Origin: Escherichia coli
GTDB lineage: Bacteria > Pseudomonadota > Gammaproteobacteria > Enterobacterales > Enterobacteriaceae
Assembly (NCBI RefSeq): GCF_003790525.1
Contig: NZ_CP033635.1
Length of the DNA: 64,000 nt
Reading direction: 5' to 3' (one strand)
A model generated the notes under the pieces. The model was not told the DNA's origin, did no database searches, and worked only from the letters and a program-made list of their open reading frames with translations. This document shows positions 26,640 to 27,284 of the stretch, piece by piece (the first letter of the stretch is position 1; every line of letters starts with the position of its first letter). Position numbers and translations under genes: made by a program.

Positions 26640-27284
26640 ATGAGCAGCATTATCACCATCACAGTGTATACGCTGGATGAACTTTCCTGCCCGGTACGGG
26701 GAAAAGCCCGCGACGGGTACCGTCAGCATCATGCTGACAGCAACTGGTATGAAAACGTGTATGAGGACTTCAGGGCGGTCTGTGACATTTTCGGAATTGA
26801 CCTCCGCCAGCGCGTTTTCCGGCTCAGCAACGGCAGGTTTATGGAAGAGCCGTGCATCTGGTTCAGCGGATGCTGCAGCCAGGGGGACGGAGCCTGTTTT
26901 GAAGGACGCTGGCACTGGCAGCCGGCGACAGCCCGGATAATCCGGAAGTATGCCCCACAGGAGCATGAACTCCATCGTATCGCGGATGCCCTGCAGGCGG
27001 TGCAGAAGCGTAACTTCTGGCAACTGCAGGCTGAAATCCACCGCCGGGGACGCTACTGCCATCCGTACAGCATGGATATCACTGTTACCCGGAACAGTCC
27101 GACTGGTCAGACTATGACAACAGATGCGGAAGCCGCTGTCAGCGAAGCCCTGCGCGACCTGGCCTTATGGCTGTACCGTCAACTGGAAAACGAGCACAAC
27201 AGGCTGACCTCAGATGCCCCTGTGGATGAGGCCCTTCTCATCAACGAATACACCTTCACCGAAGCCGGTCTGCGCACCGGCTGA
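26640..27284 (+). CDS. hypothetical protein (extra gene between yeeT-like and cbeA; family not assigned)
   Basis: 214-aa ORF, same strand, starts 18 bp after the preceding stop and ends 50 bp before the cbeA start; fills a gap that is essentially empty in the K-12 CP4 prophages as I recall them; has a Cys-rich patch (CIWFSGCCSQGDGACFEGRWHW). Confidence 0.45.
   Translation: MSSIITITVYTLDELSCPVRGKARDGYRQHHADSNWYENVYEDFRAVCDIFGIDLRQRVFRLSNGRFMEEPCIWFSGCCSQGDGACFEGRWHWQPATARIIRKYAPQEHELHRIADALQAVQKRNFWQLQAEIHRRGRYCHPYSMDITVTRNSPTGQTMTTDAEAAVSEALRDLALWLYRQLENEHNRLTSDAPVDEALLINEYTFTEAGLRTG

Follow-up and report, generated by a model that had tools for sequence, protein, structure and literature searches.

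The DUF8835/phrog_5162 gene between the DUF987 and cbeA genes of an Escherichia coli genomic island

Gene order around the type IV toxin-antitoxin (TA) pair cbeA/cbtA is read here against the K-12 CP4 prophages. In these prophages the antitoxin gene comes almost immediately after the DUF987 (yeeT) gene, as a first-pass annotation of the present locus had stated; the spacers measure 73 nt in CP4-44, 18 nt in CP4-6 and 37 nt in CP4-57. The window analysed here, a stretch of 64,000 nt from E. coli contig NZ_CP033635.1, carries an ORF of 214 codons between the same two genes. This raises the questions of whether the ORF is a gene, to which family its product belongs, how it came to lie at this position and what it may do for the elements that carry it.

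The gene, its array and its protein family

The ORF is part of a series of genes on the + strand, of which the following features are relevant here (coordinates are those of the window):

22527-23411, + strand, GTPase-like gene at the start of the array, followed by a 225-aa ORF and DUF905
24466..25284, + strand, DUF932 gene (YfjQ/YafZ-like), from RefSeq annotation of identical DNA
25366..25845, + strand, antirestriction gene (Pfam Antirestrict, PF03230, KlcA/ArdB-like), from a profile match and RefSeq annotation
25861..26337, + strand, RadC-like JAB domain gene, from RefSeq annotation of identical DNA
26400..26621, + strand, DUF987 (yeeT-like) gene, 18 nt 5' of the ORF
26627..26633, + strand, Shine-Dalgarno-like AAAGGGG, 6 nt 5' of the ATG of the ORF, read directly from the sequence
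26640..27284, + strand, DUF8835/phrog_5162 gene, 214 aa, ATG start, RefSeq WP_045146861.1
26862..26906, + strand, signature beta-hairpin motif FSGCCSQGDGACFEG, codons 75-89, from alignments and predicted secondary structure
27060..27062, + strand, codon of His141, near-invariant in the family alignment
27334..27702, + strand, YeeU/CbeA-family type IV antitoxin gene, GTG start, 49 nt 3' of the ORF
27792..28166, + strand, CbtA-family toxin gene, last of the DUF932-to-cbtA genes

The tight packing on one strand described in the first-pass annotation is borne out by the ATG start, the Shine-Dalgarno-like sequence and the upstream spacer of 18 nt; the downstream spacer, given there as 50 bp, measures 49 nt. 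Within 25320-27960, no promoter-like or terminator-like site was found on the + strand, which fits co-transcription of the ORF with the antirestriction and RadC genes. A strong terminator-like hairpin, with a 12 bp stem containing 7 G-C pairs and a T-rich tail, lies at 24388-24417 (+), past the short DUF905 ORF and ahead of the DUF932 gene. No other convincing terminator-like site was seen on the + strand in 24300-27900, so the genes from DUF932 to cbtA may form one transcription unit. Most of the 214-codon ORF is covered on the opposite strand by an antisense ORF of 200 aa (26460-27062, -), which we attribute to the GC richness of the coding strand. The cbtA-like gene is followed by a DUF5983/yeeW-like gene, DUF957 and DUF4942 and then by the core gene ynjB, which the right end of the island adjoins at 29686. 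According to RefSeq annotation of strains with identical DNA, the yeeW/DUF5983-like and DUF4942 genes in 28163-29458 are truncated or frameshifted pseudogenes. The left side of the island is further decayed and contains IS fragments, a YadA-like adhesin gene and an 'inovirus Gp2 family' gene.

The ORF codes for a protein and is subject to purifying selection. A comparison of four E. coli islands (the window, JJ1886, TUM9812 and ETEC4075) gave a dN/dS of 0.31 for the ORF, and values of 0.36 for YeeU, 0.20 for CbtA, 0.22 for the antirestriction gene, 0.13 for RadC and 0.09 for DUF987. Homologues of the protein form 2,288 clusters at 90% identity and 2,753 representative clusters at 50% identity (E<=1e-3), and the frame is intact over its full length in ~1,900 genomes. 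An untranslated spacer, with a reading frame not conserved among homologous islands, had been considered as an alternative, and both the dN/dS value and the large set of homologues argue against it.

Judged by profile, motif and predicted fold, the protein is almost certainly a member of the DUF8835/phrog_5162 family. In PHROGs, residues 3-212 matched positions 3-197 of the 201-position profile phrog_5162 (E=6.4e-31), which is a function-unassigned PHROG. The identical RefSeq protein, WP_045146861.1, is named 'DUF8835 domain-containing protein'; use of the DUF8835 name rests on this annotation, and the Pfam-A version used had no DUF8835 HMM. Pfam-A returned no match for the protein even at E<=10 and none for 106 relatives or for the phage homologues, and neither NCBIfam nor PADLOC matched the 214-aa protein. 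The earlier statement that no family could be assigned therefore holds for these three collections, and is superseded by PHROGs and RefSeq. No literature on DUF8835 was found, and the polyvalent-protein paper contains no description of this domain. As a sequence feature the gene is nonetheless already known: annotations of it exist in thousands of genomes, and its domain is a catalogued DUF.

Conservation was measured over an alignment of 106 diverse members. Near-invariant positions are E14, L15, G52, G77, Q81-G82-D83-G84-A85, F87, G89, L111, H141, W177, Y179, L182, F206 and G210. The signature hairpin reads [FWY]SGFxSQGDGA[CS]FxG, with Q81, G82, D83, G84 and A85 each conserved in at least 92%, and His141 is found in 100 of the 106 members. 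The hairpin motif, His141 and the C-terminal ANExxF...G are kept in phage homologues at 25% identity. The window protein has the same length and motif as the family and differs from it in nothing of kind: it carries the hairpin, His141 and INEYTFTEAG (family C-terminal ANEYxFxxxG), with Cys at position 78 where 94 of the 106 members have Phe. The Cys-containing segment quoted in the first-pass annotation, CIWFSGCCSQGDGACFEGRWHW, is indeed present at residues 72-93, but the 'Cys-rich patch' does not stand as a feature of the family. Apart from the exchange at position 78, residue 86 is Cys in 64 members and Ser in 37, and the other Cys positions are less than 35% conserved, which makes a metal cluster unlikely.

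An AF2 model based on the 106-sequence alignment (mean pLDDT 95.9, pTM 0.88) predicts a compact single-domain alpha/beta protein, and so confident a model also sets the ORF apart from a chance reading frame. The 214 aa and the one predicted domain agree with the ~195-225 aa and single alpha/beta fold expected of a family member. Among solved structures, neither a PDB sequence nor a fold match to the AF2 model was found; the best 50 matches in AFDB50 were all DUF8835 family members, with TM-scores of up to 0.97 for full-length members. A 969-aa 'fungal' DUF4326 protein in AFDB50 was rejected as a true fusion, since it probably represents merged bacterial genes. The family is generally acidic, with a median net charge of -14.5 and a pI of 4.8, and the window member is less so, with a net charge of only -4.8. 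A divergent tandem paralog of 221 aa was observed on a metagenomic mobile-element contig (L003:1143-1808), two genes 3' of a canonical member; it has SRENSA instead of the SQGDGA motif and lacks His141.

Origin of the gene order in E. coli islands

The first-pass annotation regarded the ORF as an extra gene inserted between DUF987 and cbeA, and in this it had the direction of change backwards. The 73-nt yeeT-cbeA spacer of K-12 CP4-44 holds the RBS and the first eight codons (~24 nt) of the ORF (GGGAATTCTGATGAGCAGAATTATCGCCACTACC, encoding MSRIIATT), and this eight-codon remnant (scar sequence ATGAGCAGAATTATCGCCACTACC) is joined directly to the sequence just 5' of cbeA. JJ1886 carries the intact gene in an island at the same chromosomal site as CP4-44, beside tmaR. 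In the PS1Phumofeces1 island only the final 113 bp of the gene are left; a remnant of the 3' end alone implies a deletion independent of the K-12 type. The scar in CP4-44, the intact copy in JJ1886 and the independent deletion indicate that the gene is ancestral to this island type and has often been lost. It is almost certainly an original part of the CP4-44-type array, in the order DUF932, antirestriction gene, RadC, DUF987, DUF8835 gene, cbeA, cbtA, and deletions have removed it more than once, in K-12 among others. The spacers of CP4-6 and CP4-57 hold no remnant of the gene.

DNA of the ORF is present in 2,045 of 5,426 complete E. coli genomes, in 1-8 copies and mostly at 90-95% identity, and the order RadC-DUF987-ORF-YeeU is the same in ~1,800 E. 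coli genomes. The K-12-type scar allele is commoner among E. coli genomes than the intact gene, being found in 3,494 of the 5,426 (64%), and the copy in E. coli B is frameshifted; E. coli can do without the gene. K-12 is a misleading reference for these islands, CP4-44 being a deletion derivative. Its cbeA/cbtA pair is the experimentally studied type IV TA pair, and ~38% of complete E. coli genomes have, inside the cbeA/cbtA cluster, a gene that is not known to have been studied together with that TA system.

Several rearranged forms of the gene were observed. Natural in-frame fusions to the downstream YeeU/CbeA gene occur in some E. coli (P0008 and about 14 other proteins of 343 aa), in which a small deletion has taken out the stop codon together with the larger part of the spacer (window equivalent 27270-27340); the fused proteins carry PF06154. 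Chimeras with fragments of antirestriction, RadC or DUF5983 genes (P0033, P0051 and P0042) and a variant with an internal duplication (P0001) were also found. Deletion and recombination within these islands appear to be frequent.

Genomic contexts of the family

A motif scan of 100,044 species genomes yielded 542 relatives, and a context census was made on the best 80 of these, almost all of which are from Alphaproteobacteria, at 55-59% identity (57-59% between E. coli and alphaproteobacterial homologues). Neighbours were scored with a GC3-filtered gene call, in which some genes were still missed; unfiltered clustering was swamped by conserved spurious ORFs of the GC-rich DNA. The +1 neighbour was a strawberry-notch helicase of ~1,450 aa in 39 of the 63 usable loci among these best 80 relatives, and genes for ParB, ArdC, RadC, DUF6878, DUF2958, DUF4326 and Toprim proteins were found nearby. 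Rhodobacterales plasmids show the upstream order ssb, DUF932, RadC, RadC, DUF6878, two small ORFs, an acidic ORF of 139 aa and the DUF8835 gene, followed on the 3' side by ParS/MbcA and RES and, further on, by a strawberry-notch methyltransferase-helicase and a Toprim protein. In Sphingobium, the DUF8835 gene is preceded by ParB, ArdC-like, PAPS reductase and 136-aa partner genes. The one conjugative plasmid examined in this respect showed neither a relaxase gene nor an oriT within 50 kb of the gene. A Celeribacter plasmid (NZ_CP022197.1, 26897-42963) carries two ParS/RES pairs, an AbiEi/AbiEii pair and a DUF1778 antitoxin gene 3' of a family member, as well as a Qat anti-phage system (qatA, qatB), so that defence and putative counter-defence genes are interleaved.

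The small acidic upstream partner, of 136-139 aa, was observed at L005:8589-9008, at L013:5598-6008 and in 16 of the loci L021-L100. It overlaps the start of the DUF8835 gene by 8 nt in the Rhodobacterales plasmids (139-aa form) and by 8-47 nt in 15 of the 16 cases of the best-80 census (138-aa form), an overlap of the partner's stop with the DUF8835 start that suggests translational coupling. Partner copies of Phaeobacter and Sphingobium are 54% identical. Neither Pfam, NCBIfam nor PHROGs matched the partner, which also lacks a counterpart in the E. coli island; a relationship to DUF987 or YeeW was rejected, as it is similar to neither.

The gene is also carried in 57 phage records, all of which appear to belong to virulent phages by their names and taxonomy, and all sampled phage homologues match phrog_5162 (E 1e-44 to 1e-84). 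Carriers include Caulobacter phiCbK-like phages and Bertelyvirus, Brevundimonas jumbo phages, Pseudomonas phages Lana and PMBT3, Acinetobacter Saclayvirus, E. coli phage Av-05 and jumbo phages of Serratia, Erwinia, Salmonella and Klebsiella. The phage neighbourhoods consist of small unannotated ORFs. Caulobacter phages of the Bertelyvirus type have the gene within their terminal repeats, and hence in two copies, and in Klebsiella phage fENko-Kae01 it is the 4th gene of a direct terminal repeat of 19.7 kb. Terminal repeats are assumed to be the first phage DNA that enters the cell. The label 'RNA polymerase binding protein' of one Acinetobacter phage homologue was rejected, the record being unreliable (60-aa ORFs are called 'DNA polymerase' in it).

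In Enterobacteria, the gene always lies within a DUF987-cbeA-cbtA cluster, at a variable position. It is 5' of cbeA in E. coli (the window and loci L017-19), and one of these loci, L017, has an additional ORF of 76 aa between cbeA and cbtA. Klebsiella michiganensis (L014-L016, 6610-7996) and Salmonella diarizonae (L020, 6293-8084) have it between cbeA and cbtA, in the order DUF987, cbeA (two copies in Salmonella), DUF8835, cbtA, so that the 214-aa gene stands between the antitoxin and toxin genes of the type IV pair; in Salmonella the DUF8835 gene overlaps the preceding cbeA by 4 nt. Enterobacteria and a single lineage of Rhodobacterales plasmids are the only groups in which a TA pair adjoins the gene. 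No adjacent pair was found in the plasmids of Shinella and Sphingobium, in the phages or in most of the 63 scorable loci.

Candidate functions

The DUF8835 protein may be an accessory protein that serves as an early establishment or anti-defence factor directed at the host or recipient, a reading drawn from gene context to which we assign a probability of roughly 40%. Leading regions of conjugative elements were reported to be enriched in genes for anti-defence, TA, SSB, methyltransferase and uncharacterised families, and ~10% of the uncharacterised leading-region families are common to phages (Samuel et al. 2024, PMC11541004). The window array resembles these anti-defence islands in that the DUF8835 gene is clustered and co-oriented with a klcA-type gene and a TA pair; in plasmids the gene lies with SSB, ArdC and methyltransferase-helicase genes, and the family is likewise shared with phages. 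The E. coli element differs in being a degenerate chromosomal island, and the likeness is one of gene context. Arrays of small accessory genes are common to all contexts of the family, and their position beside SSB, ParB, ArdC, RadC, antirestriction and methyltransferase-helicase genes, together with the phage terminal repeats, favours an early host-directed role. Of the 'counter-defence or addiction-related role' suggested by the first-pass annotation, the counter-defence part gains from the conjugative-element and virulent-phage contexts, whereas the addiction part is weakened by the general lack of a TA neighbour and by the K-12 pair without the gene. Since the family has no Pfam, NCBIfam or PADLOC match and no similar solved structure, any mechanism is proposed from guilt by association. 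An independent anti-defence role leaves the confinement of the enterobacterial gene to the cbeA/cbtA cluster unexplained.

According to this proposal, the protein would act early on the recipient or host cell after DNA entry; for phages, the early timing is assumed from the location of the gene. The SQGDGA hairpin together with His141 might make up its putative site, to which Glu14, Trp177 and Tyr179 may also belong; the site could bind or modify a host factor or a small ligand. A near-invariant Gly-rich hairpin combined with a His would, speculatively, point to catalysis or ligand binding and away from a DNA mimic. A broader and more doubtful idea is that DUF8835/phrog_5162 founds a new class of early host-takeover or anti-defence proteins, common to conjugative elements and virulent phages, including jumbo phages, with a fold absent from the PDB and a Q-G-D-G-A/His site, and possibly co-opted into the enterobacterial cbeA/cbtA cluster.

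The protein could instead be an enzyme or ligand-binding protein for the DNA metabolism of the element itself, active in replication, repair or processing of incoming DNA and not in countering defence. The Q-G-D-G-A loop and the His are near-invariant over ~2,750 clusters and persist at 25% identity, a pattern seen more typically in active or ligand sites than in binding surfaces, and SSB, ParB, Toprim and helicase genes are among the neighbours. However, no known catalytic fold or Pfam family was matched, the tandem paralog lacks the motif, and purifying selection persists in E. coli islands that neither replicate nor transfer. We consider this explanation unlikely.

Somewhat less likely again is a role as an accessory of the TA system, an idea that is attractive for Enterobacteria from the position within the operon and the fusions. 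There the gene never leaves the DUF987-cbeA-cbtA cluster and, in Klebsiella and Salmonella, stands between antitoxin and toxin, with the 4-nt overlap in the latter; in the Rhodobacterales plasmid lineage it is directly 5' of the unrelated ParS/RES pair, and E. coli has the natural 343-aa in-frame YeeU fusions. Yet the CP4-44 cbeA/cbtA pair does without the gene, as does the deletion allele in 64% of E. coli genomes, most alphaproteobacterial loci have the strawberry-notch helicase and not a TA pair on the 3' side, virulent phages carry the gene with no adjacent TA genes, and the two neighbouring TA families are mechanistically unrelated. The YeeU fusions, moreover, are rare singletons, against unfused clusters whose members number from hundreds to over 1,000. 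Compared with YeeU/CbeA (PF06154), the DUF8835 protein belongs to the same cluster, is encoded adjacently, is occasionally fused in frame and shares a name in some databases, but it has no sequence or profile similarity, is of another size and predicted fold and is absent beside the K-12 TA pair. No PF06154 or RelB profile match was obtained for the protein, and Pfam matched none of the 106 relatives. An AF2 model of a synthetic ORF214+YeeU fusion, used as a proxy for interaction, gave a pTM of 0.60 with a pLDDT below 50 in the YeeU half, for which there were too few YeeU alignment rows; this weak test lends the TA reading no support. Antitoxin names do occur in databases: some UniProt/AFDB entries are also called 'Antitoxin of the YeeV-YeeU toxin-antitoxin system', and 'antitoxin of TA stability system' is a generic RelB-type label that denotes RelB-type proteins in papers. 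These names probably spread from the rare in-frame YeeU fusions or from adjacency. With modest confidence, DUF8835 is not a TA component.

An acidic DNA mimic of the ArdA or Ocr type, blocking type I restriction, is very improbable. DUF8835 shares with ArdA and KlcA (ArdB) the kind of neighbourhood and, on average, the acidity of the family (median charge -14.5), and a KlcA/ArdB-type gene lies two genes upstream; but the window member carries a net charge of only -4.8, and the compact alpha/beta fold predicted for it and its conserved loop are unlike elongated mimics. The true KlcA-like gene is a separate ORF (25366-25845). Identity with ArdA, which the first-pass annotation had named as a possible assignment, or with ArdB (KlcA) was rejected, as there was no match to PF07275 or PF03230 and none to a solved ArdA or ArdB structure. 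It is equally hard to believe that E. coli carries the ORF only as a leftover, untranslated or decaying and without a function today: the gene is often deleted or frameshifted, chimeric or truncated variants are common and the host islands are degenerate, with IS elements and pseudogenes, but its dN/dS lies in the range of the functional neighbours, ~1,900 genomes keep the full-length frame, a good RBS precedes it and 57-59% identity to the alphaproteobacterial homologues has been retained.

Of these readings, the early host-directed role is favoured. A very large and strongly conserved family with no solved structural relative, encoded in conjugative accessory blocks and phage terminal repeats, has the traits of a good anti-defence candidate; although ordinary as a sequence feature and not a new discovery, the gene is a reasonable target for study and for anti-defence screening. 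A further observation concerns its neighbour: yfjY, the K-12 paralog of the RadC-like gene at 25861-26337, is now named lfgB (RefSeq naming), and its product reportedly acts as a protease on the antitoxin MqsA, which it cleaves (PMC10846083). If this activity of LfgB is general, the RadC gene of the array could act on antitoxins, which would bear on the reading of the array as a whole.
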